Below, one piece after another: positions 2,457-64,000 of a DNA stretch of 64,000 nucleotides. The notes below the pieces were generated by a model. It had not been told where the DNA came from and did no database searches. It saw nothing but the letters and a program-made list of their open reading frames with translations. The position numbers were made by a program, and so were the translations under genes. This stretch comes from Actinomycetota bacterium (GTDB taxonomy: Bacteria; Actinomycetota; Actinomycetes; Nanopelagicales; Nanopelagicaceae), in the NCBI GenBank assembly GCA_009698815.1, contig WLPJ01000006.1, positions 55,081 to 119,080 of the forward strand, read 5' to 3'. How positions within the stretch are numbered: the stretch's first letter is position 1; each line of letters starts with the position of its first letter.

Positions 2457-3187
2457 TGCCTAAGAAGAACATTGCACTTGTTACTGGAGCTGGCGGCGGC
2501 ATCGGTGCTGGAATCGCTAAGACTTTAGCCGGTGATGGATTCACGGTGATCTGCGTTGATAAAGATGCAAATAAAGTAGAGCAGATATCTAAATCAATCC
2601 CCGGATCACATTGGTTTGCACTAGATGTGACGAAGGAGAGCGAGATAGTTGCGCTGCGAGATTCGCTAGCGAAAAGTATTGGTAACCCAACGCACCTAGT
2701 TAACTCAGCGGGCATTTTCTTTGAGCACAACCTTCTTACCTTCACAGAAGAAGAATTTGATTTGATGATGAATGTAAATATCAAGGGAATGTTCTTTATG
2801 TGTAAAGCATTTATCCCAGCGATGGTCACAACCGGCAAAGGAAATGTAATAAATATTGCATCAACTGCTGGATTACGTGGTGGTCGCAATAGACCTATTT
2901 ATTCCGCATCAAAAGGTGCCGTAGTCTTGTTTACTCGTTCTATCGCAATTGATTTTGGCCCGAAAGGTGTTCGTGCAAATACCGTGGCACCTGGCCTAAT
3001 CGATACGCCTATGGCCTCTTGGTTAAGCGATGATAAGGAAGCGCTAGCCAAATGGGAGAAAACCATTGCTGCCCAAAGAATTGGTACACCCGATGATATT
3101 GGCAAGGCAGTTAGCTACCTAGCATCCGATGCTTCATCCTTTGTCTTTGGTGAAACCCTAGTAGTCGATGGCGGGGGAATGGCGTAA
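2456..3187 (+). CDS. SDR family oxidoreductase
   Basis: TGAGGGIG, NSAG, YSASKG, VAPG motifs. Likely GTG start at 2456 overlapping the upstream stop. Confidence 0.9.
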   Translation: MPKKNIALVTGAGGGIGAGIAKTLAGDGFTVICVDKDANKVEQISKSIPGSHWFALDVTKESEIVALRDSLAKSIGNPTHLVNSAGIFFEHNLLTFTEEEFDLMMNVNIKGMFFMCKAFIPAMVTTGKGNVINIASTAGLRGGRNRPIYSASKGAVVLFTRSIAIDFGPKGVRANTVAPGLIDTPMASWLSDDKEALAKWEKTIAAQRIGTPDDIGKAVSYLASDASSFVFGETLVVDGGGMA

Positions 3188-36753: not shown

Positions 36754-36827
36754 ACCGCTGTAGCTCATTTGATAGAGCACCCCACCAACTATGGGAAGTG
36801 TAGCGGGTTCGATTCCCGCCAGTGGTA
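36754..36827 (+). tRNA. Degenerate tRNA-like gene (apparent anticodon AAC)
   Basis: Acceptor ACCGCTG/CAGTGGT; TA; D arm GCTC-ATTTGATA-GAGC; anticodon arm CCCCA-CCAACTA-TGGGA; T arm GCGGG-TTCGATT-CCCGC. Non-canonical C33, T37, GA in the D loop and a 6-nt variable region. Confidence 0.6.
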
Positions 36828-36837
36828 CGCACACCAA

Positions 36838-36888: not shown

Positions 36889-37093
36889 ACTACCCGCAAT
36901 TAATATTGTGAATATCGGCAAACATATCCGCCTCTCTCCCGGGGCGCTCCAGCACATAATCACCACACACCTGACAGAAGGCATGAAAGTAATAAACCCC
37001 AAGCTCTTCCATCCATTTGTAGTCATAGATAAATGAGACAACAACGGCGCCAAAATCTGGCAGTGACCGATGCCCGCGCGCACGATGGGCCGC
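36889..37093. repeat. 205-bp direct repeat, left copy
   Basis: Matches 50869-51073 with 5 mismatches counted by eye (36900, 36904, 36905, 36966, 37076). Confidence 0.95.
36890..37093 (-). pseudogene. Duplicated 3' fragment of the hypothetical gene 50870-51436
   Basis: Encodes ...AHRARGHRSLPDFG...FCQVCGDY...HNINCG-stop; no start and no 5' part. Confidence 0.85.
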
Positions 37094-50868: not shown

Positions 50869-51073
50869 ACTACCCGCAACTAACGTTGTGAATATCGGCA
50901 AACATATCCGCCTCTCTCCCGGGGCGCTCCAGCACATAATCACCATACACCTGACAGAAGGCATGAAAGTAATAAACCCCAAGCTCTTCCATCCATTTGT
51001 AGTCATAGATAAATGAGACAACAACGGCGCCAAAATCTGGCAGTGACCGATGCCCACGCGCACGATGGGCCGC
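50869..51073. repeat. 205-bp direct repeat, right copy
   Basis: Begins 1 nt beyond the stop codon of 50870-51436 and matches 36889-37093. Confidence 0.95.
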
Positions 51074-51436
51074 ATCTAGCTCAAGCCCCGCAAGCCCACC
51101 AACTTCGGCCACTGCATCCATCTCCACGACCAACCCACACGTGCAGTGCCATTGCTTACCCGCATAGTTAACGTAACCCCAATGCCATTTCTGGTGCTGC
51201 CACGAATTCAAATTCGCATAATGCAGCCACGCCTTATAGCGCCCGTACTTACGCATTCCGGATTTGCCATCCATCTTGCTGTGCAGTTCCTCTAGCTTTT
51301 CATTTGAAATTGAGACATCGACATAACTCTTCTTATTTCGCTTAGACATAACAAACCAGCCCTTAATGGACCTCATATAGAGACCCGCTCTTCTGGCGGT
51401 GTCTGTCATCGCCAGCAGGTCTTCCTTTAGAACCAC
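50870..51436 (-). CDS. Hypothetical phage-like protein with Cys/His (putative Zn) motifs
   Basis: HCTCG...HRARGH and FCQVYG...HNVSCG; start uncertain (MTDT, MRSI or MSKR). Confidence 0.7.
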   Translation of the reverse strand: MVLKEDLLAMTDTARRAGLYMRSIKGWFVMSKRNKKSYVDVSISNEKLEELHSKMDGKSGMRKYGRYKAWLHYANLNSWQHQKWHWGYVNYAGKQWHCTCGLVVEMDAVAEVGGLAGLELDAAHRARGHRSLPDFGAVVVSFIYDYKWMEELGVYYFHAFCQVYGDYVLERPGREADMFADIHNVSCG

Positions 51437-51520
51437 CGTGCGCGGTTGGCGCGGTTGGTACTAAGCAGCTAAAGGCTTAACGCTTAGTTCTTGACCTACT
51501 TTGAGTATAGACCTAGTGAC

Positions 51521-51542
51521 TGTCAGTTCTCGGTTGTATCTT
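51521..51542 (+). promoter_or_regulatory. PafBC/RecA-NDp-type promoter
   Basis: TGTCAG-N10-TATCTT, ATG 6 nt later. Confidence 0.7.
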
Positions 51543-51548
51543 TGAACT

Positions 51549-51689
51549 ATGAAAGAGAAACCAGAGCAAAAGCAGGGCGATGGTCCTTTCTTTATAGAGG
51601 TTCCCAAGCCAGTAAATCAAATGACACAGGCAGAGAAAGACGCCTTTGTGGATGAGATTCTCAATGCTATTGATGGGGAACATAATTGA
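51549..51689 (+). CDS. Small leaderless protein (46 aa)
   Basis: MKEKPEQKQGDGPFFIEVPKPVNQMTQAEKDAFVDEILNAIDGEHN; its stop overlaps the next start (TTGA). Confidence 0.7.
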   Translation: MKEKPEQKQGDGPFFIEVPKPVNQMTQAEKDAFVDEILNAIDGEHN

Positions 51690-52621
51690 AAAGCTGCCCA
51701 TTGTGTAAATCTAAAACAAGCTTACGAAAAATCGTTTACGGGTACCCAGATGGACCAATAGATGAGAAGAAGTATGCGATAGGTGGCTGTTGTATTTCAG
51801 ATAATGACCCAACGGTTAAATGTATTGAATGTGGATGGGAAGGTGAATTTGTGAACCATATAGGACCTAGACCGATGATTCCAGAATCACCTCAACGAAT
51901 AGATACATCCGTTCTTGAAAGAATTTCAGTAGAAGTCTTATCGGGTATTTCTAAAGAGCAAAGCAAGTTTGCGCCGCTAACTGCTGAGTTAGACGCTACA
52001 TGGGAGAAAATTGCCAAGGAGGCAAAAGAAATAATGGCTATGGGCTACACCGTAGATATTGTTTCTGAAATCCCAGAGATTGAAATCCCTTACCACCCTT
52101 ACCGTGTGATATTTGAAGGATCATCACTTCTGGGTGAATCAAATGGACTTGAGAATTTTATGTTGGCACACGGGAAGCTTTCTGAATTAAGGGATAAGGG
52201 TCGCGCTAAGTGCTATACCCGATGGTGCAAAGCCTGCACTCTTTATCGTTTGCCACTTCAAAATGACGTGACTGGCCATGTTTTAAAAATCTCTTTTCCA
52301 AATGTTATTTCACTTGCCAGTAATATCAACATCGATTGGCGCTGGGAGCGCCCGGATAGTGAATGGGCCAATCAACAGGGTGACCCAGTGAAGGAATATA
52401 AGTCTTTGGTGGAACGTAAGTCCAAGCCTGTCTTTTACGTGCGGCTGGAGTCAGAAGAATACATAAACATGCTGTTGGGAGGGCAAAGCGAAAGAAGTAA
52501 TAGTCGTTTTGTATGGGATTCCCCTGAGGGTATAAGTGTTAAATGTGCTGACTGTGAAAAATGGTTTGCACTCAGCGAAGGCAGGAAATCGCACGATTGC
52601 ACAACTATAACTAGACCATAG
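51686..52621 (+). CDS. Hypothetical protein with terminal Zn-ribbon-like motifs
   Basis: CPLC...IVYGYP...GGCCI...CIEC at the N-terminus; CADC...HDC at the C-terminus. Confidence 0.75.
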   Translation: MKSCPLCKSKTSLRKIVYGYPDGPIDEKKYAIGGCCISDNDPTVKCIECGWEGEFVNHIGPRPMIPESPQRIDTSVLERISVEVLSGISKEQSKFAPLTAELDATWEKIAKEAKEIMAMGYTVDIVSEIPEIEIPYHPYRVIFEGSSLLGESNGLENFMLAHGKLSELRDKGRAKCYTRWCKACTLYRLPLQNDVTGHVLKISFPNVISLASNINIDWRWERPDSEWANQQGDPVKEYKSLVERKSKPVFYVRLESEEYINMLLGGQSERSNSRFVWDSPEGISVKCADCEKWFALSEGRKSHDCTTITRP

Positions 52622-52679
52622 GAAAGCAACACTCATGCTTAAGAGTTGTAGGACATCTATCTAAAAAGCCCTACCAAAG

Positions 52680-53144
52680 TTATCCCCATCCCAGAAGGTG
52701 GTTCTCAAACTCCTTATTGCTTAATGCATGGTGGCTTCTCTTCTTGCGGATGAGAGCGATGGCTTCTTTGGCGCTCATCCCATCTTGCATCAGGATAAGT
52801 CCGATCACGAGACCAGAACGGTTGAGGCCGGCTTCACATCGCACCAACACACGGCGTCCTTTCTTCCACTCTAAATACGCCCACTCTGCAACGTGTTCAA
52901 TTTCTTCGATTATCTCTGGTGCTAGTGGCCCATCTGCAAAACCGAATCGAAGTTCCTTCACCAACCAGCCAACTGGCAGTGCATATGAATTCAGGCTAAC
53001 CACCACATCAAATGGCTTTGGGTCATTCATCGCAGGCAATCGTTTCTGCCCTTGATAAGTAGTCTCGTATTGACCTGTGCCACCCTGCCACAGATTCAAA
53101 GTTATCTCTGAGTAAAGATCAATGTCATCGTCCTCTTGTCCCAT
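52680..53144 (-). CDS. PTP/dual-specificity phosphatase family protein
   Basis: VRCEAGLNRSG (CX5R), FGFADG acid loop, ALSNKEF. Confidence 0.88.
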   Translation of the reverse strand: MGQEDDDIDLYSEITLNLWQGGTGQYETTYQGQKRLPAMNDPKPFDVVVSLNSYALPVGWLVKELRFGFADGPLAPEIIEEIEHVAEWAYLEWKKGRRVLVRCEAGLNRSGLVIGLILMQDGMSAKEAIALIRKKRSHHALSNKEFENHLLGWG

Positions 53145-53150
53145 TAGATA

Positions 53151-53172
53151 AGCCTAGTTGCGGGTGCTGACA
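53151..53172 (-). promoter_or_regulatory. PafBC/RecA-NDp-type promoter
   Basis: Minus strand TGTCAG-N10-TAGGCT, ATG (53144) 6 nt later. Confidence 0.7.
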
Positions 53173-53208
53173 ATGCTGCTGATGAATTGCTCGGATAAAC
53201 CATTAGGT

Positions 53209-53230
53209 TGTCAGTGCCCACACGTAATAT
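53209..53230 (+). promoter_or_regulatory. PafBC/RecA-NDp-type promoter
   Basis: TGTCAGTG-N8-TAATAT, ATG (53238) 7 nt later. Confidence 0.75.
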
Positions 53231-53237
53231 CCCTTGA

Positions 53238-53435
53238 ATGCTGAACCTTTACCCGACTAGTTCTCAACTTGATACCCACGTCTGGCGACTTGATATTGAT
53301 CGAAAAAGAAACTTTATATATCAAGCCTGTTCATGCGGATGGAAAACAAAGGTCCGAGATTTCTATGGAGCCGCTTGCACATATGACACGGCATATCAAT
53401 GGATGAACCACTTTGACTTCAAATCCGGTGATTAA
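53238..53435 (+). CDS. Small phage-like protein with a CxC...H motif
   Basis: QACSCGW...WMNHF; leaderless start behind the promoter above. Confidence 0.65.
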   Translation: MLNLYPTSSQLDTHVWRLDIDRKRNFIYQACSCGWKTKVRDFYGAACTYDTAYQWMNHFDFKSGD

Positions 53436-53575
53436 GAGTTAACGGAAGTAAGGACTTACGCACTACTAATCACGCACACTACCGCATGTAATAAGCCTAG
53501 TAAACGCTCAATTATCGAATTAGGCATCCAAACGACTATCCGCGTTACTACCTCGTTGCTACCTCGAGATTCAAA

Positions 53576-54076
53576 GTGCACACTAGGGAGGTGAAAAGAC
53601 TCATTTTCCTTCTGACTTTAGTTTTAGCCATGGGCGTGATTCCTTCGGCACATGCAGAAGAGATCACCATTGATGGGTACGTCACAATCAATTACCCAGC
53701 CACGGTGAAGCTAAACCAGACAGGGTGTCAAAACATTGCCTTCAAATACGTAACAGATGAAAATTTGCCACGTGAAAATTCTGTCTTTTTAGTCTCAATA
53801 ACACCAAATGACAGTAAGCGGGTTTATGGTTATGCGGCATGGATGTCGACTCTAACTTATATGGGAGATCAGGCACTTCCACCTATGGCTCGTATTGGAG
53901 TTTTACAGGTTAAAATTTGCAGAAAAGCTTTTATGTATTCCTCGAAATCAACTAAGTTGACACTTGCAAGCAAGCCAGGCACCTACACGATTTATTTTAA
54001 CGCAGGAACTTACGATGAAAATGGCTCATTGACCGGGGAAAAGATTGAATTCAAGCGAAAGATTAAGTTCTACTAG
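53576..54076 (+). CDS. Hypothetical secreted protein
   Basis: Signal peptide ending AHA; two Cys; beta-rich appearance. Confidence 0.7.
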   Translation: MHTREVKRLIFLLTLVLAMGVIPSAHAEEITIDGYVTINYPATVKLNQTGCQNIAFKYVTDENLPRENSVFLVSITPNDSKRVYGYAAWMSTLTYMGDQALPPMARIGVLQVKICRKAFMYSSKSTKLTLASKPGTYTIYFNAGTYDENGSLTGEKIEFKRKIKFY

Positions 54077-54094
54077 CCTTTATTTACTCGCATA

Positions 54095-56245
54095 CTAACC
54101 ACTGCCGTACATCTTAAAACACCATCCATCAGCAGTTGTTTTTGCTCTTTCCATGTCCTTATCCATTAGAGAAGAATCATAGGTTCCTTTTTCCTTTGCA
54201 CGGTTCCCTAGTTCGAGCAGCTTGGCGTTGTATGTGCACGATTCCTTATCTTTCCCTAGCATAAAAAGCAGGGCCGAATAAAAGGCAGTTCCGGAGAAAT
54301 CATTGCGCGCTGCCAATTTTTCATACCATTTTGCCGCCTCTTCCAAGTTTTTCTCATCCAGGCGATAAATTGTTCCAAGCTTGCGAATCGCATCGGTATT
54401 TCCTTTATTGGCAGCCTTTAGTAGTAACTGTTTGCCCTCTTCCTTTTGACCTGAGTCATAAGTAACCGCACCAAGTACGTATGTGGAGAGAAGATCTCCA
54501 AAACTCATGCCTTGTGTTGCCCATTTCTTGGCCGCAGCAAAATCTTTGTCGTAAAAATAGGTTATGGCGAGAACGCCCATATTCACCTGGTTACCACTAT
54601 TCGCTGAGACTAATAGCCATTTTCGAGTTAGCTCTTTGTCGCCGATCTGGTCGGCATAACCAATTAAGGCATTTATTCCTGTCGTACTTCCCAATTCGGC
54701 CGCCTTCGTAAGCCATTTGAGGGCATTAGCTTTGTCTTCGAGGTCTCTGTAGTGAATTCCTAGCCAAGCCGCCGCGTCGCTATTGCCATAATCAGCGGCA
54801 TCGCTGAGATACATAATTGCTTCTTTAGTAGCTCCAGCACGAGTGAGAATGAAACCCTGCATCATCTTGCAGTAAGCGACGTCCTTTAAAGGAGCCGTAT
54901 CAGTTTGTGCGTAACTCGTATCTGCACACGTCTTCGTCCAACGATCACGCTCTGTTGTGTTAGATAACTGAGTGTAAGTATCAATTAAATAGCGCATACT
55001 ATTTAGATCATTCTTTTTAGCACCTTTTAAAAACCATTTTTCGGCATCCTTAAAATTTGAGTTTGCAAAGTATTCACGCCCAACGTAGAAAATAGAGGTA
55101 AGGTCTCCCGCATTTGCCGAAGGTAAACATTTCTTTACGACATTGCGTCCTTTATTTTCATATTCAGTTTCACATTCCCGAGAACTGGATGTTTTACCAA
55201 TTTGAGGGCTTAGTGGGTCCTTGGTCACAGTGGGTGTCGTAGAAGGTGTGTCAAGTGGTTTAGGTGAAGCTGAAATTGTGGGAACTTTCGTAGGAATAGT
55301 CGAGTTTCTGTCATAAAGCAGTGATGAGAAAACCGAAATTACTAAAATAAGCGAAACTGAAACAAGAGTCTTCCTAGAAGAAATTACCTTCATGGTTCGT
55401 CGTCGAGATTTCAATGGACGAGGCTGCTTCGTCCTCCCAAGAAGAAACTCAATGTAGCCCAATGCGCTTTGATGGGCTTCAAGAGCGGTTGGGCGGTCGG
55501 ATGGATTTTTCTCCAGGAGGGGGAAAATGAATTTTTCTTGATTCTCGGAAAGACCCTCAAGATTTGGTGAATCTTCATTGATACTTCTCATTAGCTGAAG
55601 GTCATTGTCGCCTTTCCAGATACTTCCACCTTTTGCAGCATAGGCGAGAGTTGCGGCTGCACTAAAGACGTCCATTTTAGGATTTGGCCTAATTGTGAAA
55701 TGTTCCGGCGAGCTGAAGGGGGTTGAGCCTTCGCGGTCACCAAAGATCGCGGTTCTTGTTTGCCCTGAAATATGGGCGATGCCAAAATCAATTAACTTGT
55801 TGCCTGTTTCGCCTAGAATAATATTGCTAGGCTTTATATCTTTATGAATAATGCCAATTTCATTTGCAGTAACGATTGCATGGAAAATATTTGCGGCAAG
55901 GTTGAACCATGCTATTTCTTCGAGAGGGCCTTCGTACTTGACTTTGTCATCAAGAGTAGGTCCGTTAATGAATTCTGTAGCGATCCACGGGAATTCTCCA
56001 CTTAAGTCAGATTCAAGAATTTTTCCGATAGATGGATCCGAAAGTTTTGAAAGAACTTCAGCTTCCGTAGCCAGCCGATTACGTGCTTCATCTGCTTCAA
56101 CAAATTCTTTTCTAATTACTTTGATGGCTGCCTTCTGCGCACCCTTCTCAGCTAAGAAGACTGTTCCAAAGCCGCCTTCTCCCAGACGGCCATTGATGCG
56201 CCAGCCCCCTAACTCATCGGGGTCGTTTGCCTTTTTTGGCTCCAC
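54095..56245 (-). CDS. Membrane Hanks-type Ser/Thr kinase with extracellular Sel1-like repeats
   Basis: LGEGGFG, AAIK, HKDIKPSN, DFG, SPE; one TM; P/T linker; repeated A..W..KAA..G...A units; AAGGAGG RBS. Confidence 0.9.
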   Translation of the reverse strand: MEPKKANDPDELGGWRINGRLGEGGFGTVFLAEKGAQKAAIKVIRKEFVEADEARNRLATEAEVLSKLSDPSIGKILESDLSGEFPWIATEFINGPTLDDKVKYEGPLEEIAWFNLAANIFHAIVTANEIGIIHKDIKPSNIILGETGNKLIDFGIAHISGQTRTAIFGDREGSTPFSSPEHFTIRPNPKMDVFSAAATLAYAAKGGSIWKGDNDLQLMRSINEDSPNLEGLSENQEKFIFPLLEKNPSDRPTALEAHQSALGYIEFLLGRTKQPRPLKSRRRTMKVISSRKTLVSVSLILVISVFSSLLYDRNSTIPTKVPTISASPKPLDTPSTTPTVTKDPLSPQIGKTSSSRECETEYENKGRNVVKKCLPSANAGDLTSIFYVGREYFANSNFKDAEKWFLKGAKKNDLNSMRYLIDTYTQLSNTTERDRWTKTCADTSYAQTDTAPLKDVAYCKMMQGFILTRAGATKEAIMYLSDAADYGNSDAAAWLGIHYRDLEDKANALKWLTKAAELGSTTGINALIGYADQIGDKELTRKWLLVSANSGNQVNMGVLAITYFYDKDFAAAKKWATQGMSFGDLLSTYVLGAVTYDSGQKEEGKQLLLKAANKGNTDAIRKLGTIYRLDEKNLEEAAKWYEKLAARNDFSGTAFYSALLFMLGKDKESCTYNAKLLELGNRAKEKGTYDSSLMDKDMERAKTTADGWCFKMYGSG

Positions 56246-56321
56246 AGCGCACCTCCTTTAGTCGAATTATGTAGTGGATACCGGGTTATTCCTAGCTAAT
56301 CCTTGGTCAATTCTCCTGGAG

Positions 56322-57422
56322 CTAGATCAATTGCAGCAGGATCTCTTCAACTTTCTTAAGGTCTTGCTTGGTTGCTGTTGAAAGTGAAATTGTCACAACA
56401 GATTTTCCGCTTTGCAGTGAAACGTTTAGCAAGCCCTTTCCCGTATAAACAAGGAACTGGGCCTTCATCGCCTTCACAAATAAGGAGATAGCCTCTTCAG
56501 TGACTCCTGAAGATAACTGAATTTTTAATGGTCTCCCATTCAATTCGAGGTCATAGTTATCTAAGTTGTGGAGAACAGCACTTATCGTGGCTTTTTCAGT
56601 TACTGCTGTTGCGCGCTTTTGAAATACTGAAGATGTCTTTGCCTCAGTAATATCTCCTAGCATTGTGGTCCATGTTCTGGATGCCCCATCTTCAAGATTA
56701 TTGAGTCTAGCGGTTAGGGGACTTGCGTCATCTTCTCTCACTTCGATAGAGAAGCTTGGGCCTAATTTTTCGTTGGCAAATAGTTCCCATTGCTTGAAGT
56801 AAGTGTTGATTGCCTTCCTGCTAATGAGGCCCTTCTTACTTGCACCTTCAACAAAATCATCTTCACCATCATCGGCTTGCTCGCCATCGCTAATATCGGA
56901 GAGCAGCTCGTGTGAATCTTTTATCCATTTAGAAAAATCTACTGCGGTAGAAACACTGACTTTTAAGAGGTTATTGGAGCGCACCACCACCTTCTTGAGA
57001 GCATCAGGGTTTAGAAAAGGGGAGTAGACCTGGGGAAGAGATCTCTCCGGATCTAAAATATTGAGATGTGCATTTACGCAGCTGGCACGATTTCGGCTCA
57101 GGTTGAGAGTTTTCTGATGCTCGAGTACCAGTGCACTAATCTCGATAACCACCTCTGTTAAATCAACGCTCTTGGGATTAGTGGCAGGAAGCTTATTAAT
57201 CATGTCACTTAGCTTCTGGCGACCCGCGAGTCCAGAAACTAGGCCAGCCTTTGCGAGCGCAGAATATGTTTTTTCATCAAGCTTGCCTAAGCCTTTACGC
57301 TCCCAGTAGGTAGCGATCTCCGAACTGGCCGCTGCCTCGGTAAGTAAACGGGCACGGTTAGCCTCAAAGCCAAGGTCGCGCTCTAGGCGCTCCTTAATTT
57401 GCTTGCCTGTCATAGATGCCAT
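56322..57422 (-). CDS. Hypothetical cytoplasmic protein (366 aa)
   Basis: Long ORF with a GGAGG RBS; no family recognised. Confidence 0.75.
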   Translation of the reverse strand: MASMTGKQIKERLERDLGFEANRARLLTEAAASSEIATYWERKGLGKLDEKTYSALAKAGLVSGLAGRQKLSDMINKLPATNPKSVDLTEVVIEISALVLEHQKTLNLSRNRASCVNAHLNILDPERSLPQVYSPFLNPDALKKVVVRSNNLLKVSVSTAVDFSKWIKDSHELLSDISDGEQADDGEDDFVEGASKKGLISRKAINTYFKQWELFANEKLGPSFSIEVREDDASPLTARLNNLEDGASRTWTTMLGDITEAKTSSVFQKRATAVTEKATISAVLHNLDNYDLELNGRPLKIQLSSGVTEEAISLFVKAMKAQFLVYTGKGLLNVSLQSGKSVVTISLSTATKQDLKKVEEILLQLI

Positions 57423-57434
57423 TGTGCCTCCATA

Positions 57435-57605
57435 TTGTTTCTATAAGAACTATATCAATATCTATAAGAAATGGCTACATGCGCCACCGAGCCCTATCGG
57501 ATCTATTTTGCGCTCAATTCACGCTTGAGGCGACACGCCGCAGCAAATATTTTGGCCAGGGGGCTTGACTTCTCTTGTTTCTATAATCTACTATAAAGTT
57601 TATAG
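57435..57605. promoter_or_regulatory. Divergent promoter region with CTATAA boxes and a GACAC-type promoter
   Basis: TCTATAAGAA at 57440 and 57461; TTGTTTCTATAA at 57435 and 57575; palindrome CTATAAA-G-TTTATAG 57591-57605; AGGCGACACGCC 57528; TTGACT 57565; TACTAT 57589. Confidence 0.65.
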
Positions 57606-57635
57606 AGGTGATAGACACCTCAGTAGGAGGAAGAA

Positions 57636-58655
57636 ATGTTAAGCAAGAATTCAGTAAAAGCAGTAAGAAACAATGCTTTTAGAGCTTTGGTCGTTGGTTT
57701 AAGTGGAGCGGCACTGGTCATGTCGCTCTCAGCTTGCTCTCCTGTGAGCTCACTCAAATCAGCATATGAGGGTCAGCCTTTCCCTCAGATGCCAGCTCCC
57801 GAGGTAGCTACATACGTCCTGGACTTGTCGGGGTCCACTTATCCAACCGCTCAGTTGGAAGCGTTGGGATCAGGAATTACTGATTTCATCGCAGGACAGT
57901 CACTGGGTAATCCATTCGCCCAGTCTCCTGTAGCTCCTCGGGGGTTAAGCATTCAGTTCGTAACCAAGAACTCGGCCCAAGCTCCTCGAATTCTTCTCGT
58001 TTCAACAAAAACAAGCCAGAGCCTTTATGAGTACATAAAGGAGAAGACGCCGAACCTAGAGGGCGCACTTCAACTCTGGGATGGCTTCGTTAATGCACGA
58101 ACACAGATTTGGCAGGACTCAGCACTTGAAGCCAATCAGGCTGATTGTGTGATCAAGATCGTGGGGATGTTGGGTCGCCAACAACTTCTCCCTGATGCTC
58201 TGAAGTTCCCCGCAGGCATCATCTGCCAAGACGCAAAACAAACGGCAATATCCCTCAAGCGCCTTCAAGACTTTGTGGCTAACCCAGGAATTGAAATGGG
58301 TTCTGACGTTAAAGGTGCAGTTGAAGCTAGTTTAAGGAACTTAGCTACAGCAAAAGCAGAAAATCCATCAGCACGACTCACTCTTGTAATCGCCTCTGAC
58401 TTAGTCGATGAGGTCTCACTCACTCTTCCTCGTCGATTGAAGGGAATTGATTCTAATGGCGTGTGTGAAATGGCAGTTCAAGATGCAGGGAATGTTGCCA
58501 ATGATTACTCATCTGTGAATGTGGTGATTGTTGGCGCTCGCAATTCGAAAGTAAATGTAAAAACTCTGGATCAAGTTCAGGCCTACTGGACTTGCTACTT
58601 AAATCAAATCGGAATAACAAACGTAACAGAGCAGTCTGATCTCTCAGGCTTCTAA
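57636..58655 (+). CDS. Lipoprotein with a VWA-like (MIDAS) domain
   Basis: LSAC lipobox; VLDLSGS (DxSxS), GSDV, VIASDL. Confidence 0.75.
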   Translation: MLSKNSVKAVRNNAFRALVVGLSGAALVMSLSACSPVSSLKSAYEGQPFPQMPAPEVATYVLDLSGSTYPTAQLEALGSGITDFIAGQSLGNPFAQSPVAPRGLSIQFVTKNSAQAPRILLVSTKTSQSLYEYIKEKTPNLEGALQLWDGFVNARTQIWQDSALEANQADCVIKIVGMLGRQQLLPDALKFPAGIICQDAKQTAISLKRLQDFVANPGIEMGSDVKGAVEASLRNLATAKAENPSARLTLVIASDLVDEVSLTLPRRLKGIDSNGVCEMAVQDAGNVANDYSSVNVVIVGARNSKVNVKTLDQVQAYWTCYLNQIGITNVTEQSDLSGF

Positions 58656-58686
58656 TAATCCAAACAAAGAAAATAGGAGTAATAAA

Positions 58687-59817
58687 ATGAAAAGCAAGTC
58701 AAAATCATCAGCACCAAAGGAAGTAATCAAGGACGCCCGTAAGCACGGTCGACGCGATGGCAAGAATCAAATTCCTCGCCAAGAATGGGAATACAACAGC
58801 ATTCCCTATTTAATGCAGCTACAGCGTCAATATGCAGCATTTGGCAGAGAGCTAGATCTTCAGCTTGAAGAGAAGAAACTAGCTAAGGAAAATCAGAAGG
58901 TTAATGCGTTAAGAAATGAAATCCAAGAAAAGGGAAAGTCACAAGCCCTTGCGGACAATCTGGCTCTTGCACAAGCAGAGTTAGCATCCGTCCAGGCAAA
59001 GCTAGATGGCGGAGCAGAGGAAGTTCCTATGGCGAAATTCGCGCGAATTCGCCAAATTGGGAATATCTTCTATCTTCCATTCTTGTTCCTACTCTTCATC
59101 GGTGAGTTCACAATTACTGCACCTGCATTTCGAGTTTTACTTGGTGAAAAAGTGGGAACTTCGCTGATTGTTACCTTAGCGGTAAGCGGGCTCTCTGTAG
59201 GGGCAGCTCACATACTTGGCATTTACTTCAAATCTCTATTTGATCGTAATCGGCCAAAGTCCGGCATATATCATGTGATGTTTGGCGTTGCTGGAGCTTT
59301 ACTAGTTGGAACCATCACCTTCTTATCTAATATCCGAGCACGCAATGGCGTCCTTACTTCAGGCAATCTAACAGGTATGACAGAAGACGAAAAGATTGTC
59401 TACCTATGGATCTTCTACACACTGTTGCAACTTACATTCATTGGAGTTGGAATCCTGATTTCATTTATGCACTATTCAGAAATTGAAAGTGCTGTCGCTC
59501 GCGCTAAACGCAAAGTTTGGTTCCTGCGTAATCTTCAGAATCGTCGTAATAGCAAAAAGCTAAAGTCAGGTGCGTCTGTAGAAGAGTCAGAGATCGATAC
59601 ATCAAAGATGTTTGATCGCGAACTTGAAGTACTTGAAAGTAAGAAGATACTTCTTCGTGCACAGTACGAGGAATCTGTAGCAGTTTACCGCGATGCAAAT
59701 ATTCAATCTCGTCGTGATGAGATGAGCGGTGCGCATGCATCTCTGCAAGCATCGGAGCTGGATTTTCGTACTTCGGGACTTGAATTCAGCACAGCGGAGC
59801 TAGTTGGCTCCCGATGA
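58687..59817 (+). CDS. Hypothetical 4-TM protein with N- and C-terminal coiled coils
   Basis: Charged helical N-terminus, four hydrophobic segments, charged helical C-terminus; AGGAG RBS. Confidence 0.75.
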   Translation: MKSKSKSSAPKEVIKDARKHGRRDGKNQIPRQEWEYNSIPYLMQLQRQYAAFGRELDLQLEEKKLAKENQKVNALRNEIQEKGKSQALADNLALAQAELASVQAKLDGGAEEVPMAKFARIRQIGNIFYLPFLFLLFIGEFTITAPAFRVLLGEKVGTSLIVTLAVSGLSVGAAHILGIYFKSLFDRNRPKSGIYHVMFGVAGALLVGTITFLSNIRARNGVLTSGNLTGMTEDEKIVYLWIFYTLLQLTFIGVGILISFMHYSEIESAVARAKRKVWFLRNLQNRRNSKKLKSGASVEESEIDTSKMFDRELEVLESKKILLRAQYEESVAVYRDANIQSRRDEMSGAHASLQASELDFRTSGLEFSTAELVGSR

Positions 59818-60515
59818 ATTCGCAAATGATTGCATCAGGTGTGTTACTTGCGATCGGATTATCGATCTTGAGTACCGCTACGGGGACAGCAGCTCCGACA
59901 GTTATCAAGGTATATGACGGTGACACAATAACTCTGAGCACTGGTGAAAAAGTCAGGCTATTACAGATCGATACCCCGGAACTCGCCTCGGGTGAGTGCT
60001 ACAGCGAAGAAGCCAGACGCGCGTTAATCTCGTTATTGAAATTGCCTGGTCAAATTACATTAAGGGCTGACCCGAAGCTAGATCAAGTAGATCGTTATGG
60101 CCGTCTACTTCGGTACGTATTTAAAGGAAATTCAAACATTAATCTAAAAATGGTAGAGATCGGTGCGGCAGCCCCGTATTTCTACCAAGGCCAAAAAGGG
60201 AAGCACTCATCTCAGATTCTTAAAGCGGCGGAGAATGCAAAATCTAAGTCGCTTGGTTTATGGAAAACCTGTCCAAGTGCAAAGCTGACGCCGAACAACG
60301 CCATAAAGACAGTGGCAGGCAACATCTCCCACGTATCGGCCACCCCACCAGCCGGCGCGAATTGCGACCCAAACTATGCGGGTTGCATTCCCATCTTCCC
60401 GGCTGATATCGATTGCACGGACATTAAACGTCTTGGCCTTGCACCCGTGAAAGTAGTTGGCACAGACATACACAAGCTAGATCGTGACGGCGACGGCCTT
60501 GGGTGCGATAAATGA
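59814..60515 (+). CDS. Secreted thermonuclease (SNase family) with an Excalibur-like Ca-binding tail
   Basis: VYDGDT, VRLLQIDTPE, DRYGRLLRYV, GLW; C-terminal CDPNY...DC...LDRDGDGLGC; ATGA overlap with the upstream gene. Confidence 0.9.
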   Translation: MNSQMIASGVLLAIGLSILSTATGTAAPTVIKVYDGDTITLSTGEKVRLLQIDTPELASGECYSEEARRALISLLKLPGQITLRADPKLDQVDRYGRLLRYVFKGNSNINLKMVEIGAAAPYFYQGQKGKHSSQILKAAENAKSKSLGLWKTCPSAKLTPNNAIKTVAGNISHVSATPPAGANCDPNYAGCIPIFPADIDCTDIKRLGLAPVKVVGTDIHKLDRDGDGLGCDK

Positions 60516-60648
60516 TTGCAATCTCCTATTTTGGCGAAGACACCAGAATTTACTGTCCGGCTACACGGTGCCTTCGAAAAATGAATTTCTCCGAAATATG
60601 TGACTATGCATCCCAGCTTTCTGACTACGTCATTCTGAGATCAGAGAC

Positions 60649-60670
60649 TGTCAGTGGCCACTGATAACTT
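60649..60670 (+). promoter_or_regulatory. PafBC/RecA-NDp-type promoter
   Basis: TGTCAGTG-N8-TAACTT, ATG (60678) 7 nt later. Confidence 0.75.
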
Positions 60671-60677
60671 CTTGAGT

Positions 60678-60830
60678 ATGGAAAACTTACAAGGTTTTGA
60701 GGGCTTATCTGCCCTGGAGGAGTCTGCCGTCCGGCTCCATGAAATCTACAAATCCCTTATGACTGGGGGATTTACCGAAGATGAAGCGCTCTCACTGATA
60801 GCCAAGATGACTAAGCCAAACTCAGAGTGA
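60678..60830 (+). CDS. Small leaderless phage-like protein (50 aa)
   Basis: MENLQGFEGLSALEESAVRLHEIYKSLMTGGFTEDEALSLIAKMTKPNSE, read by hand. Confidence 0.7.
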   Translation: MENLQGFEGLSALEESAVRLHEIYKSLMTGGFTEDEALSLIAKMTKPNSE

Positions 60831-61205: not shown

Positions 61206-62240
61206 TTAGCCCTTGGCAACTCGTGAGCACATTCCAAGCAATGCTTTCGAAACACTTAGATCATTAACTCGTGCCACATCAATCTTTGGCTTAGCCCCAT
61301 AGTCATTGGAGCGTATTGCTTCAATATTGATTCCTTCAATGTTCTCAAAAAATGTAACTAACTCATCAACGAATTGTTCTTTTTTGTAATCAACGAATCT
61401 AGCTTCAACTGTGGCTTTGCCAAAGGTATGGAATACAAGTGGATACCTAAAACCTCTTGCTGTTTTGACACATATGGCGCCAGAGGGAGTTTCAGATTTT
61501 GTGCCGCCCCATTTATGGCCATCGGATTCGAGCAAGGCCATGAGTGATTCGAATTTCGGGAGAGAGGATGGCTCGTTTGAAAGTAACCAAGCAGCAAACT
61601 CATCTTTAGTCCAAGGATTTCTTTGCTCATAGGCATCAACTTGAGGCTTTAGAGCCTCATAACCAAATGTTTGGGGGATCACGATTTCTGTATCACCGGT
61701 CGAATGGCGAGCCAATTCAATCAGAGCAACACGAAAAGTCGCATCAGTTTTCTTGTTTACAAGAATCACCATATCTTTAAGTGGCTCATTAATTTCATCA
61801 ACCGCCAGTAGTAATGTGAACCTTGCACCTTCAAGATTTGTTGTGACTCCTAGCGATAAGGGTCCTTTTGTAGTCTCTACCGAAGTTAGATCTGCGCCAC
61901 CACGATCTTGCCAACGCTGGTGGAACTCTTCAAATGAGAGCTTGCTGATGCTTGCTGCGTAATCAATTATCTGACCAATTATCTTCCTGCGAACCTCAGG
62001 ATTTCTCGCAAGCTTGCATTCAACCAAAGTGATTGAACCATCTTTGGAATTGATGATCACATTATCAATTGGCCCAGAGTCTGTGTTGAATTCTCTACAT
62101 ACAAATGAATCAGAGCTCACACCAGGTAATAACTCTGGGAATTCTGAAATCATCGCCTGCAGTTGATCTTCGCTCGCATATCCTGAATCAGTTGGTGAGA
62201 TCCACGCGCCGTTACCCCTTCGGTAAAGAATTCCACTCAT
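61206..62240 (-). CDS. NucS/DUF91-like PD-(D/E)xK nuclease domain protein
   Basis: EDQLQ...REF...GPID...TLVECKL...RRKIIGQIIDYAA. Confidence 0.78.
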   Translation of the reverse strand: MSGILYRRGNGAWISPTDSGYASEDQLQAMISEFPELLPGVSSDSFVCREFNTDSGPIDNVIINSKDGSITLVECKLARNPEVRRKIIGQIIDYAASISKLSFEEFHQRWQDRGGADLTSVETTKGPLSLGVTTNLEGARFTLLLAVDEINEPLKDMVILVNKKTDATFRVALIELARHSTGDTEIVIPQTFGYEALKPQVDAYEQRNPWTKDEFAAWLLSNEPSSLPKFESLMALLESDGHKWGGTKSETPSGAICVKTARGFRYPLVFHTFGKATVEARFVDYKKEQFVDELVTFFENIEGINIEAIRSNDYGAKPKIDVARVNDLSVSKALLGMCSRVAKG

Positions 62241-62956
62241 AGTCGTGCCAATAACTTCTTAAAATCCGGTTTTCCCAGATTGCCTTCAGTTAGATAGATG
62301 CTTCTTGTGCTTTTAAATTCCACTCTGTTTTTATGGTCAAACAACTCAGGCACGGCAGTGAACCATCCCAACATATTCCTGCTCATAATGATTAACGCAT
62401 CTCGCTTAATCGCCTCACTCACCAGGTTAAAGGAGTAGTGCTGGGTCGGGAATGTGAAGGGAATAGGATGCCAAGACTTTGAATGGTAGGCATGGAAATT
62501 AAGCAGGAATAAACCTCGAGTCACTCTCTCTACTGAAGTCTTTGCCACAAGCTCTCGGACTCTTGGTTTAAACCAAGCACTCTCCATTTCAGGTTTATTG
62601 GGTGAGTCAATTCTTGACCTAAAGGATTCTAAATCTACGTGCCTTAAGTTCCTTGTATTCTGCTCTAGTTTATTTGCGTTCATTCTAAATTTTGGGTTCT
62701 TCTCTTTTTCATTAACTCCCGGATTGGCCATAAGCACAAAGATATTCGCCTTGGGGTTCCCGAGATAAGGATGAGGTTCTAAGTGTTCAGCCAAAAGGTA
62801 ATTCTCTTTATCTTTACTTTCCCTAGAACCCATTCCCTTATTAAACCCCTGAAAATAAGGTAGATCTGTCAGATGAACTTTGGGCTCATTCTTTTGAGGA
62901 TTAAAAGTCAGCCAAGGATTTTCAATCACTCTCATAAGGTAGTGCGCTCGTAACAC
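62237..62956 (-). CDS. Uracil-DNA-glycosylase-superfamily-like protein
   Basis: PHPYLGNPKANIFVLMANPG resembles UDG motif A; NFHAYHS; its stop overlaps the nuclease start. Confidence 0.55.
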   Translation of the reverse strand: MLRAHYLMRVIENPWLTFNPQKNEPKVHLTDLPYFQGFNKGMGSRESKDKENYLLAEHLEPHPYLGNPKANIFVLMANPGVNEKEKNPKFRMNANKLEQNTRNLRHVDLESFRSRIDSPNKPEMESAWFKPRVRELVAKTSVERVTRGLFLLNFHAYHSKSWHPIPFTFPTQHYSFNLVSEAIKRDALIIMSRNMLGWFTAVPELFDHKNRVEFKSTRSIYLTEGNLGKPDFKKLLARL

Positions 62957-63032
62957 CTTGTAAACACTTATTTACGAGATCTCTAACTGTCTCTAATGGC
63001 CAAACGACGTAAGAAAAACTAAGCCTTTCTGT

Positions 63033-63998
63033 TCAAGCCGTTGGAAGGGTGAATCGATAATCAATCGGACTTAGAGAATCTTCATCTGGATTCCAATCCC
63101 ACCAAAACCTTTCGCGACCACCTGAAGTCTTGTATTCATCCCCATCTTTGGTGCAAACAATCTGGTCCACGACATAGAGAAGAGAACGGAATTCTTCACC
63201 TGCAATTTGGGCATACTCAACTTCAGCAGTTGTGACGGCAACCTCTATTCGAGACATAATGCTTGCTTTAACTTCAACTCCGACTACCTCATCTCCCTTA
63301 ACGGCTCTTAAGTCATACCCAAGTCGCTTTTGGGAACTTACGTCCTCAACGGCATAGCCCAACTTCTCTAGATAATTGGTAGCGAGCGCCATTCCTCGTA
63401 ACTCTGTGGCCTTCTTCTTTTTTTCATCAGTTTGTATTCCGTATGAAGATTCAGCTGGTGGTTTTGGACTCGTAGGTTTGTATGTTGCCAACCTTGATGT
63501 AATCGGTGACTTAATGTGCGAAATCTCGGGTGCAATATCCACTCCAAGTTGTTGAACAGCAGTAGGGAATAAATCAACTAACGCCTTAGGCATTTTGCTC
63601 AGATAGGCACCTTGTGCAGGCTGTATGACTTTTTCTTTCGGAATTTGAAATGGGAAGTAGATAGATTTTCCATCGTATTTTTTATCCAAAGCAGACTTGA
63701 TAGTTCGTATCGAGCCCTGCTTATCCTGAATTTCTTTTAACGTAATTGGTTCATCAAGTTCCGTGTAATTGATTAGGTCGATTTTATAGGCAGGGCTAAT
63801 CTCTGACTTCTTTCGGTCTGGCCATCGGATCTCACCAATTTTCGGGAATCCTCTTGCAACCGAGAACGCAACAATCGATTTTGTTGGTTGGTAGTAATGG
63901 AAGACAACATCTCCATCCTCCACGAAAGCGACCAGCTTCTGACCTGCATGAGTACTAATAGGCGCGAGAAGGTTTCTACCGATATCTGTTCTATCCGT
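63033..63998 (-). CDS. EVE/PUA-like reader fused to a DUF3883-type PD-(D/E)xK nuclease, 5'-truncated by the window edge
   Basis: The frame stays open to the edge (TDRTDIGRNLLAP...VEDGDVVFHY); C-terminal EDVS...GYDL...EVKAS. Confidence 0.75.
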   Translation of the reverse strand, partial: TDRTDIGRNLLAPISTHAGQKLVAFVEDGDVVFHYYQPTKSIVAFSVARGFPKIGEIRWPDRKKSEISPAYKIDLINYTELDEPITLKEIQDKQGSIRTIKSALDKKYDGKSIYFPFQIPKEKVIQPAQGAYLSKMPKALVDLFPTAVQQLGVDIAPEISHIKSPITSRLATYKPTSPKPPAESSYGIQTDEKKKKATELRGMALATNYLEKLGYAVEDVSSQKRLGYDLRAVKGDEVVGVEVKASIMSRIEVAVTTAEVEYAQIAGEEFRSLLYVVDQIVCTKDGDEYKTSGGRERFWWDWNPDEDSLSPIDYRFTLPTA

Positions 63999-64000
63999 TG

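Follow-up and report, generated by a model that had tools for sequence, protein, structure and literature searches.

The DNA analysed here, referred to as the window, is a 64-kb stretch from a Planktophila-type (acI) freshwater actinobacterium of the Nanopelagicales (C19:55081-119080 of a 1.35-Mb assembly, 46.7% GC). Its last part carries a group of mostly small genes headed by a short element, TGTCAG-N10-TAnnnT, that resembles the promoter of the actinobacterial DNA-damage activator PafBC, and these candidate promoters, their genes and their regulator are the subject of this analysis. Contigs of the assembly, genomes and individual loci are designated by C, G and L numbers, respectively. The five promoters (P1 to P5) and the genes behind them are as follows.

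51521 to 51542, plus strand: P1, PafBC-type promoter, TGTCAGTT-N8-TATCTT, with ATG 51549 after 6 nucleotides (nt)
51549 to 51689, plus strand: open reading frame (ORF) of 46 amino acids (aa), MKEKPEQKQGDGPFFIEVPKPVNQM..., leaderless by geometry, behind P1
51686 to 52621, plus strand: 311-aa protein with an N-terminal C4 Zn-ribbon (residues 1-57), TTG start
53151 to 53172, minus strand: P2, PafBC-type promoter, TGTCAGCA-N8-TAGGCT, with ATG 53144 after 6 nt, back-to-back with P3
52680 to 53144, minus strand: 154-aa dual-specificity (CX5R) phosphatase (Pfam DSPc, 6e-11), behind P2
53209 to 53230, plus strand: P3, PafBC-type promoter, TGTCAGTG-N8-TAATAT, with ATG 53238 after 7 nt
53238 to 53435, plus strand: 65-aa CSCGWK...H protein, leaderless by geometry, behind P3
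60649 to 60670, plus strand: P4, PafBC-type promoter, TGTCAGTG-N8-TAACTT, with ATG 60678 after 7 nt
60678 to 60830, plus strand: 50-aa protein, MENLQGFEGLSALEES..., leaderless by geometry, behind P4
60894 to 61205, plus strand: 103-aa ORF with its own ribosome-binding site (RBS), after the 50-aa gene
64389 to 64410 (window-equivalent; C19:119490), minus strand: P5, TGTCGGTT-N8-TAACCT-N6-ATG
61206 to 64000, continuing into the flank, minus strand: three-gene operon behind P5, NOV_C protein first
63033 to ~64382, minus strand: 449-aa NOV_C-domain protein (1.9e-8), of which the window holds the 3' part, 63033-64000
62237 to 62956, minus strand: 239-aa protein, second gene of the P5 operon
61206 to 62240, minus strand: 344-aa protein, third gene of the P5 operon, with a weak PADLOC PDC-S11 match

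The four sites of the window start at 51521(+), 53172(-), 53209(+) and 60649(+), exactly where an earlier reading of the letters alone (the sequence-only reading) had placed them, and the genes behind them are as it described: a 46-aa ORF with a Zn-ribbon protein, a CX5R phosphatase, a CxC...H protein and a 50-aa ORF. Its account of the sites as intergenic and 6 to 7 nt before an ATG that lacks an RBS also held, with all four intergenic and gaps of 6, 6, 7 and 7 nt between the -10 element and the ATG. P5, a fifth island site 410 nt past the end of the window, heads the operon of the NOV_C gene. At all five sites the distance from the end of the -10 element to the ATG is too short for an RBS, and this spacing is kept in the orthologues. 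The hexamer is TGTCAG at P1 to P4 and TGTCGG at P5, GTC being present in all five, and the two positions that follow it take the TGTCAGTG form at P3 and P4, TT at P1 and P5, and CA at P2. Beyond the motif the five sites have nothing in common.

Dinucleotide-preserving shuffles of the window gave an expectation of 0.36 matches for TGTCAG and 0.77 for TGTCRG, and none of 100 shuffles reached four. There are 40 TGTCRG hexamers in the window, and TAnnnT at N9-11 follows only the four sites, each time at exactly N10; the remaining hexamers thus lack a spaced -10 element, as the sequence-only reading had claimed for those it checked. A sigma-70 scan found no -35/-10 pair and no TTGACA-like -35 element at P1 to P5. 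LexA boxes do not occur in the window beyond chance, and we rejected LexA co-regulation of the island on this ground.

The motif matches both published forms of the PafBC consensus. The first, derived in vivo by chromatin immunoprecipitation, is tGTCgg(N10)tA(N3)T without a -35 element, in which GTC is invariant and read by PafB R46 and R50 (PMC8635444), and the second is the older formulation of the RecA-NDp motif, tTGTCRgtg-8nt-TAnnnT (PMC5656591). The same motif marks DNA-damage genes elsewhere in this genome, which bears out its earlier identification as the actinobacterial RecA-NDp element. It lies upstream of recA, immediately followed there by a TCGAAC-N4-GTTCG LexA box, and upstream of a DUF6504 gene that precedes dnaE2-like and Y-family polymerase genes and also has a LexA box. 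The DprA gene is preceded by the motif as well, and a TGTCAC variant stands before a DinG-type helicase gene and an RNase_T-family (dnaQ-like) exonuclease gene.

The regulator that the sequence-only reading presupposed is encoded in the genome. Two adjacent helix-turn-helix (HTH)-WYL genes of 339 and 313 aa lie at C20:77.6-79.6 kb and are followed by tatC, a lipid kinase gene and a Hel308/HelY-type helicase gene, which is the mycobacterial pafB-pafC-tatA-tatC-helY order. The first WYL protein matches Mycobacterium smegmatis PafB, as found in the RNA polymerase complex 7P5X, at 3e-48, and residues K5, R8, E42, R46, R50, K52 and R56 of PafB are identical in the two proteins, including both of the arginines that read GTC.

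Across the 1.35 Mb of the assembly we found 13 loose matches to the motif, some of which look accidental (that at pgk, with a gap of 2, and C20:30419). Among the leaderless, ATG-anchored matches, five of seven fall within 13 kb. A count free of prior assumptions pointed to the same hexamers: in the 863 genomic configurations of the type TAnnnT-N5-8-ATG/GTG with an ORF of at least 40 aa, the commonest hexamers at the N10 offset included TGTCAG (5), TGTCGG (3) and TGTCAC (3), with ~0.2 expected per hexamer. Outside the island, a perfect TGTCAGTG-N8-TATCGT-N7-ATG precedes a leaderless Cys-rich ORF of 61 aa (MIIKCETCAVRDIGCGDCV...) without a Pfam match in G000 (C17:53946, minus strand).

We then scanned 18 genomes (17 complete) of the genus for TGTCRG-N10-TAnnnT-N6-7-ATG and obtained 72 matches, compared with 3 for a reversed control. 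Approximately 53 of the 72, as counted by eye, are confined in each genome to one stretch of 10-35 kb, located at ~0.38-0.50 Mb or, for the opposite deposited orientation, at 0.87-0.95 Mb. The fraction of matches inside this island was 6/6 in G157, 6/8 in G204, 5/6 in both G132 and G119, and 5/7 in G000. The island occupies the same chromosomal place in all complete genomes of the genus; in the draft assembly studied here its boundaries are broken by contig ends, and part of it appears on contig C11. This promoter type is the dominant promoter of the island throughout the genus. Back-to-back divergent sites like P2 and P3 recur in G029, G169 and G188. Six further genera of the family yielded 21 matches, compared with 1 for the control, so that the pattern is still enriched there, but it is not obviously clustered.

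The 54 distinct island sites, from 14 genomes, show the published flanks at positions that the search pattern left free. T precedes TGTC in 28 of the 54 and G in 1 (2%), T follows the hexamer at position 7 in 42 (78%), and G stands at position 8 in 31 (57%). TGTCAG accounts for 40 of the sites and TGTCGG for 14.

The targets that recur in the genus are the Zn-ribbon protein, a membrane-anchored Trypsin_2 peptidase, a winged helix-turn-helix (wHTH)-like protein of 95-161 aa, TPR proteins, Dcm and N6 methyltransferases, a MutH/Sau3AI-like protein (endonuclease), HATPase_c_3 and SNF2 proteins, HsdM, and a membrane protein of 115-136 aa, which this assembly encodes on contig C11. Methyltransferase genes lie directly behind the motif at position 3625 of L079 (a JGI contig), 6682 of L015 (G014) and 2696 of L021 (G031), and also in the islands of G005, G106, G119, G132 and G169; among them are Dcm-type genes and one of the D12 class, which has an AlwI-type endonuclease gene after it.

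The gene content of the island agrees with that of GI3 of Planktophila, which has been described as serving "phage defense and maintenance of chromosomal integrity" and holds type I and II restriction-modification systems, Dcm, a NucS-like nuclease and hypothetical proteins, with sugar transporters and isomerases in some strains (PMC12817590). We infer by this content, and not by coordinates, that the two are the same island. The sequence-only reading had spoken of a defence-like island, which fits this match; it had also offered a toxin module as a candidate role, which we did not retain, the targets being neither strain-specific orphans nor a toxin module but members of families found repeatedly in the genus. 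We likewise rejected a known defence system in complete form, PADLOC giving generic kinase-domain hits (PD-T4-6, mad6) and weak domain hits to PDC-S11, TmtA and HmaA.

The motif is conserved upstream of the orthologues of the individual genes although their surroundings have diverged, which indicates that it is not neutral sequence. The P1 operon is found in four other genomes (L057-L060) as TGTCAG-N10-TAC(A/C)TT-N6-ATG, followed by a small ORF and, with a GGAGGG RBS in front of it, the Zn-ribbon gene. The small ORF, which in our window has no Pfam or PHROG match, is there 43 aa long, conforms to F[IV]EVP..VN.M..EK..F...IL and is always directly behind the motif. Three of these contigs (L057, L059 and L060, from metagenome-assembled genomes) are titled "Bifidobacterium breve"; they are Nanopelagicaceae-like, ~45% GC and syntenic with the island, and the title looks like a labelling error. 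In the window, the TTG start of the 311-aa gene overlaps the stop of the 46-aa ORF by 4 nt (TTGA).

The Zn-ribbon gene is itself leaderless by geometry in G014, G029, G001, G157, G169 and G204, where it directly follows TGTCAG-N10-TAnnnT-N6-ATG, and the same direct arrangement occurs in two unrelated metagenomic lineages; the motif was present in every Zn-ribbon homologue context examined. The family comprises 1551 representative clusters at E<=1e-3 and has no Pfam match. A search of GTDB genomes with a single narrow degenerate pattern returned Nanopelagicaceae only, a result that does not show absence elsewhere. The AlphaFold2 (AF2) model of the protein (pLDDT 86) gave no PDB match in a fold search and one match in BFVD, an uncharacterised protein of an uncultured phage (TM 0.70). 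In the island of G132, a 161-aa protein (L089 at ~5863, minus strand) consists of the wHTH-like "MDF..ERAR...PVIDL" family fused to a C-terminal Zn-ribbon. This fusion points to a functional link between the two families and hints that both may act as secondary nucleic-acid-binding regulators.

For the phosphatase behind P2, the promoter of the G005 orthologue reads TGTCGGTG-N8-TACTGT and is followed by a leader of 29 nt. The protein matches phrog_10650 (4.5e-15), and over its C-terminal half it shares ~40% identity with phosphatases from phages of Mycobacterium and Gordonia. Roughly 1 kb away, at 54095-56245 on the minus strand, lies the gene of a Ser/Thr kinase of 716 aa that contains Sel1/TPR repeats; this gene has an ordinary RBS and no PafBC motif, and the two enzymes could be a kinase/phosphatase pair.

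The 65-aa protein behind P3 has five homologue clusters with 63-95% identity, and its CxCGWK motif is shared with proteins of G029 and G169 whose genes adjoin the Zn-ribbon gene. In homologues of 63-66% identity (L054, L055) the promoter reads TGTCAC-N10-TATCGT-N7-ATG and in the G169 homologue TGTCAGTG-N8-TAAGTT-N6-ATG. In L056, the homologue adjoins a homologue of the P5 gene.

P4 is preserved in G157, G132 and G149, the last from another genus, as TGTCAGTG-N8-TAnnTT-N6-7-ATG, and the DNA further upstream cannot be aligned. Comparison of the 50-aa protein with its homologues gave nonsynonymous differences (pN) of 0.014-0.024 and synonymous differences (pS) of 0.59-0.93, which implies strong purifying selection. 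These values, together with the homologue clusters of the 65-aa and Zn-ribbon proteins, indicate at the sequence level that the small ORFs are real genes. The 103-aa ORF that follows is probably co-transcribed from P4; it has no Pfam match, and a 64% identical homologue lies beside the 50-aa gene in G157, there with its own TGTCAGTG promoter. For P5, a near-identical site precedes a homologue in L082 and L056 (including an ENA contig). PDB sequence searches returned nothing for the three proteins of the P5 operon.

Next to P1, on the opposite strand, the window carries a riboswitch that responds, by class, to S-adenosylmethionine (SAM), with its own promoter and gene.

51382 to 51496, minus strand (opposite to P1): full-length SAM-IV riboswitch (RF00634)
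51504 to 51525, minus strand: P0, the riboswitch promoter, TGACAG-N10-TATACT
50870 to 51349, minus strand: 159-aa Cys/His-rich protein, predicted to be riboswitch-gated; the longer ORF to 51436 is riboswitch sequence

The riboswitch reaches 54.5 bits (gathering score 38), covers model positions 1-116 and contains the core blocks GGUCA.GA, CAACC, GGUG and GAAGACC. SAM-IV riboswitches of the genus fall into two ordinary classes, located before metX and before an amino-acid-binding lipoprotein gene, and a third sub-type found here (GGTCAAGAACTAAGCG...), which recurs in G014, G005, G001 and L054. The P0 hexamer overlaps that of P1 on the opposite strand (cTGTCAg / cTGACAg). Its core is GAC in place of GTC, which makes PafBC dependence of P0 doubtful. 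In the relatives, the riboswitch promoters have TGTCGG (G014), TGTCAG (G005), TGTCAC (G001) and TGTCAT (L054, a JGI contig) at N10 from TAnnnT, and because these relatives transcribe the riboswitch from a PafBC-type promoter, their sequences suggest that the sub-type is under combined DNA-damage and SAM control. The 159-aa family has 67 homologue clusters (53-92% identity), members of 158-163 aa and invariant C69, C71, H100, C132, H154 and C158. It has no Pfam match, and the AF2 model built with 26 homologues is unusable (pLDDT 40). In G005 the riboswitch sub-type precedes a different Cys-rich protein, of 194 aa.

Taken together, P1 to P5 are probably PafBC-dependent sigma-adaptation promoters that produce leaderless mRNAs, and all of the computational tests named in the sequence-only reading ran in its favour. 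The sequences show the identity of the motif and its statistics, the regulator in the genome, the conservation of the motif and its clustering; from them we infer PafBC binding, damage induction, transcription start at the ATG and the functions of all the proteins. In the proposed mechanism, which follows the mycobacterial system, single-stranded DNA (ssDNA) arising from DNA damage (UV in surface water), phage replication or restriction would bind the WYL domains of PafBC. The activator would then insert between the -26 element and region 4 of SigA, bridging them, with the HTH of PafB reading GTC. The promoter would consist of a -26 element, TGTCRG(tg), and a SigA -10 element, TAnnnT, exactly 10 nt downstream, with no -35 element. 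RNA polymerase would start transcription 6-7 nt past the -10 element, on the first base of the ATG, and the leaderless mRNAs would be translated without an RBS. The targets would form an accessory part of the DNA-damage regulon, with their genes in the flexible island, and would most likely serve to strengthen DNA surveillance and defence once damage or infection has occurred.

The best-supported reading of the genus-wide data is then that the flexible island of Planktophila is the main seat of the accessory PafBC regulon, and since the same wiring recurs across the genus, the data suggest that the island is switched on by DNA damage or phage attack. A bolder extension, which we regard as conceivable and rather doubtful, would place an entire flexible "DNA-integrity and defence" island under the master control of PafBC. 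Restriction-modification enzymes, nucleases and the small leaderless proteins, these last as new effectors or second-tier regulators, would be induced by ssDNA that comes from UV damage or from an infecting phage; the SAM-IV class would act as a "damage AND low SAM" gate, and phages with the same promoter would compete for the activator or co-opt it.

Several observations weigh against PafBC control of these genes. The loose 22-nt motif, when no ATG is required behind it, shows no genome-wide enrichment relative to the reversed control, and neither do its per-genome counts exceed that control; the ATG-anchored pattern is needed before the signal becomes visible, and specificity would accordingly come from the flanks and the leaderless context. 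As to the requirement of the sequence-only reading that the motif exceed background, this holds by a wide margin for the window sites and the ATG-anchored pattern, but not for the loose motif. P2, with its non-consensus CA flank, is the weakest and least secure of the five sites, and the phosphatase orthologue of G014 has an ordinary RBS and no motif. Neither pafA nor the Pup-proteasome genes adjoin pafBC, and there is no pafA upstream of it. A third, weak WYL-domain ORF at C16:49579 could in principle read some of the sites. Most target proteins have no match in Pfam, PDB or PADLOC, and leaderless initiation and damage inducibility are carried over by analogy from mycobacteria.

The true reader of the sites might be that third WYL protein, a factor specific to the island or an alternative sigma factor, or the sites might be constitutive "-10 only" SigA promoters, given that a -35 element is missing from many actinobacterial promoters (PMC8635444) and that the loose motif out of context is no commoner than its reversed control. 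We consider this quite improbable in view of the identical hexamer, spacing and flanks before recA, the dinG-like, dnaQ-like and dprA genes and the dnaE2 cassette, the conservation of the GTC core and of T7 and G8 at the 54 island sites, and the persistence of the motif amid diverged surroundings; the sites are moreover not palindromic operators. That the matches arose by chance, or are copies of one duplicated element, is barely credible and was rejected by statistics and conservation. The motif is degenerate, with 9 specified positions, and the genome does hold accidental-looking examples among its 13 loose matches, but the shuffles never reached the observed number, the five sites share the motif only, and the clustering of the leaderless matches and the conserved orthologue promoters do not fit such an origin.

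The island or parts of it might alternatively be phage-derived, with phage-type promoters exploiting the host PafBC and the small genes being domesticated or remnant early genes, or a satellite-like inducible element, and not host damage genes. The sequence-only reading had called the genes phage-like, which holds for the phosphatase, through its actinophage homologues, and for the 50-aa protein, whose IMG/VR homologues of 64-67% identity immediately precede a portal-like gene in the vicinity of SSB and WhiB; for the Zn-ribbon protein it holds in structure only, through the model's similarity to the uncultured-phage protein, and it does not hold for the 65-aa protein. Peptide patterns found no confirmed relative of the Zn-ribbon or the 65-aa protein in IMG/VR, and the Zn-ribbon, 311-aa and 159-aa proteins had no match in GenBank phages. 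Phages of low-GC actinobacteria nevertheless appear to use the same promoter type, to judge from viral contigs. Among ~80 IMG/VR contigs listed, at least 6 have 2-3 copies of TGTCAGTG-N8-TAnnnT-N6-7-ATG, compared with 0 among ~80 listed for the reversed control; the two counts are not quantitative and the multi-site contigs alone are informative. The phrog_1221 protein is present in all four of these that were tested (L109, L118, L135 and L145), and tblastn with the L109 copy returned overwhelmingly actinophage relatives. On the other side, the phage homologues of the 50-aa gene have a different promoter without the PafBC motif, and no integrase, capsid, terminase or portal gene lies in the window at 50.8-64 kb. 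The island keeps the same locus in all complete genomes, with families that recur across species, unlike a transient prophage. A phage origin is therefore unlikely in our view. A prophage as such was rejected, there being no PHROG integrase, structural or terminase matches in the same 50.8-64 kb and the locus being conserved across the genus; the 205-nt repeats in its neighbourhood enclose the sugar insertion described below and not this gene set.

Two observations on the viral contigs may be added. The multi-site loci (L105, L109, L118, L135, L145 and L151) have a GC fraction of 0.38-0.43, and their sites precede ORFs of 38-220 aa, some of them Cys-rich. In L068 (IMGVR_UViG_3300007735_000768), the 50-aa homologue at 3001-3141 stands before a 424-aa portal-like gene and after SSB and WhiB-like genes, a position kept in two further viral contigs.

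The promoter class and the regulator on which PafBC control of the island would depend are already known from the mycobacterial regulon (PMC8635444, PMC5656591, PMC11804915), with which the present case shares the bipartite promoter with N10 and no -35 element, the architecture of the regulator pair, the tatA-tatC-helY synteny, PafB R46 and R50, recA and repair genes as targets, and a large number of uncharacterised targets. It differs in that the host is a streamlined freshwater actinobacterium with no pafA beside pafBC, TGTCAG is preferred over TGTCGG, and most sites are leaderless by geometry and concentrated in one flexible island instead of being dispersed. The targets here also include restriction-modification genes and small phage-related proteins, and one class comes with a SAM-IV riboswitch.

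Two other groups of WYL regulators invite comparison. In Moraxellaceae, the WYL activator DdaA couples DNA damage to the expression of restriction-modification and CRISPR genes (PMC12392091), and here too a single ssDNA-sensing WYL-type activator appears to link damage to repair and to restriction-modification and defence genes. DdaA belongs to another branch of the family, another group of organisms (Pseudomonadota) and another DNA motif. It has taken the place of SOS, while in the present genome recA and the dnaE2 cassette retain LexA boxes, and the link to defence genes is drawn here from promoters only. The BrxR/CapW WYL repressors, which are local, encoded beside defence systems and bind palindromic operators (PMC9122601, PMC11662680), resemble PafBC in being ssDNA-sensing WYL regulators over defence-island genes. 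Unlike them, PafBC is a global regulator encoded at a distance from the island, which has no WYL gene of its own, and the sites are -26 elements of the activator type.

In the literature searched, no paper combines PafBC with Nanopelagicales. New with respect to that literature are the lineage, a regulon concentrated in a single flexible island, the conserved set of small leaderless proteins, the combination of the promoter with a SAM-IV riboswitch, and the promoter on phage contigs. The paper on GI3 mentions DNA damage 0 times and has nothing on PafBC, the motif, leaderless small genes or the riboswitch (PMC12817590); GI3 was published as gene content alone, to which promoter wiring is added here.

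Planktophila (acI) is the most abundant freshwater bacterioplankton, and work on PafBC has, to our knowledge, been confined almost entirely to mycobacteria and corynebacteria. If PafBC does control these promoters, genes of the flexible island would outweigh classical repair genes in the regulon of a streamlined freshwater lineage that is abundant worldwide. That regulon would include restriction-modification and several uncharacterised families of small proteins, such as the Zn-ribbon family (>1500 metagenome clusters, no Pfam). The hypervariable GI3 would gain a testable regulatory logic, namely induction by sunlight/UV damage or by phage-generated ssDNA. An actinobacterial case would be added to the DdaA principle of a WYL activator coupling DNA damage to immunity, and a set of compact, strongly conserved leaderless genes would be nominated for functional work.

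Directly beside the island, a 13.98-kb sugar-catabolic insertion parallels the sugar genes of some GI3 strains. It is bounded by direct repeats of 205 nt, 98% identical and 13,980 nt apart, one of which is the 3' end of the 159-aa gene (50869-51073) and the other its duplicate at 36889-37093, adjoined by a tRNA-Val(AAC) gene at 36754-36828.

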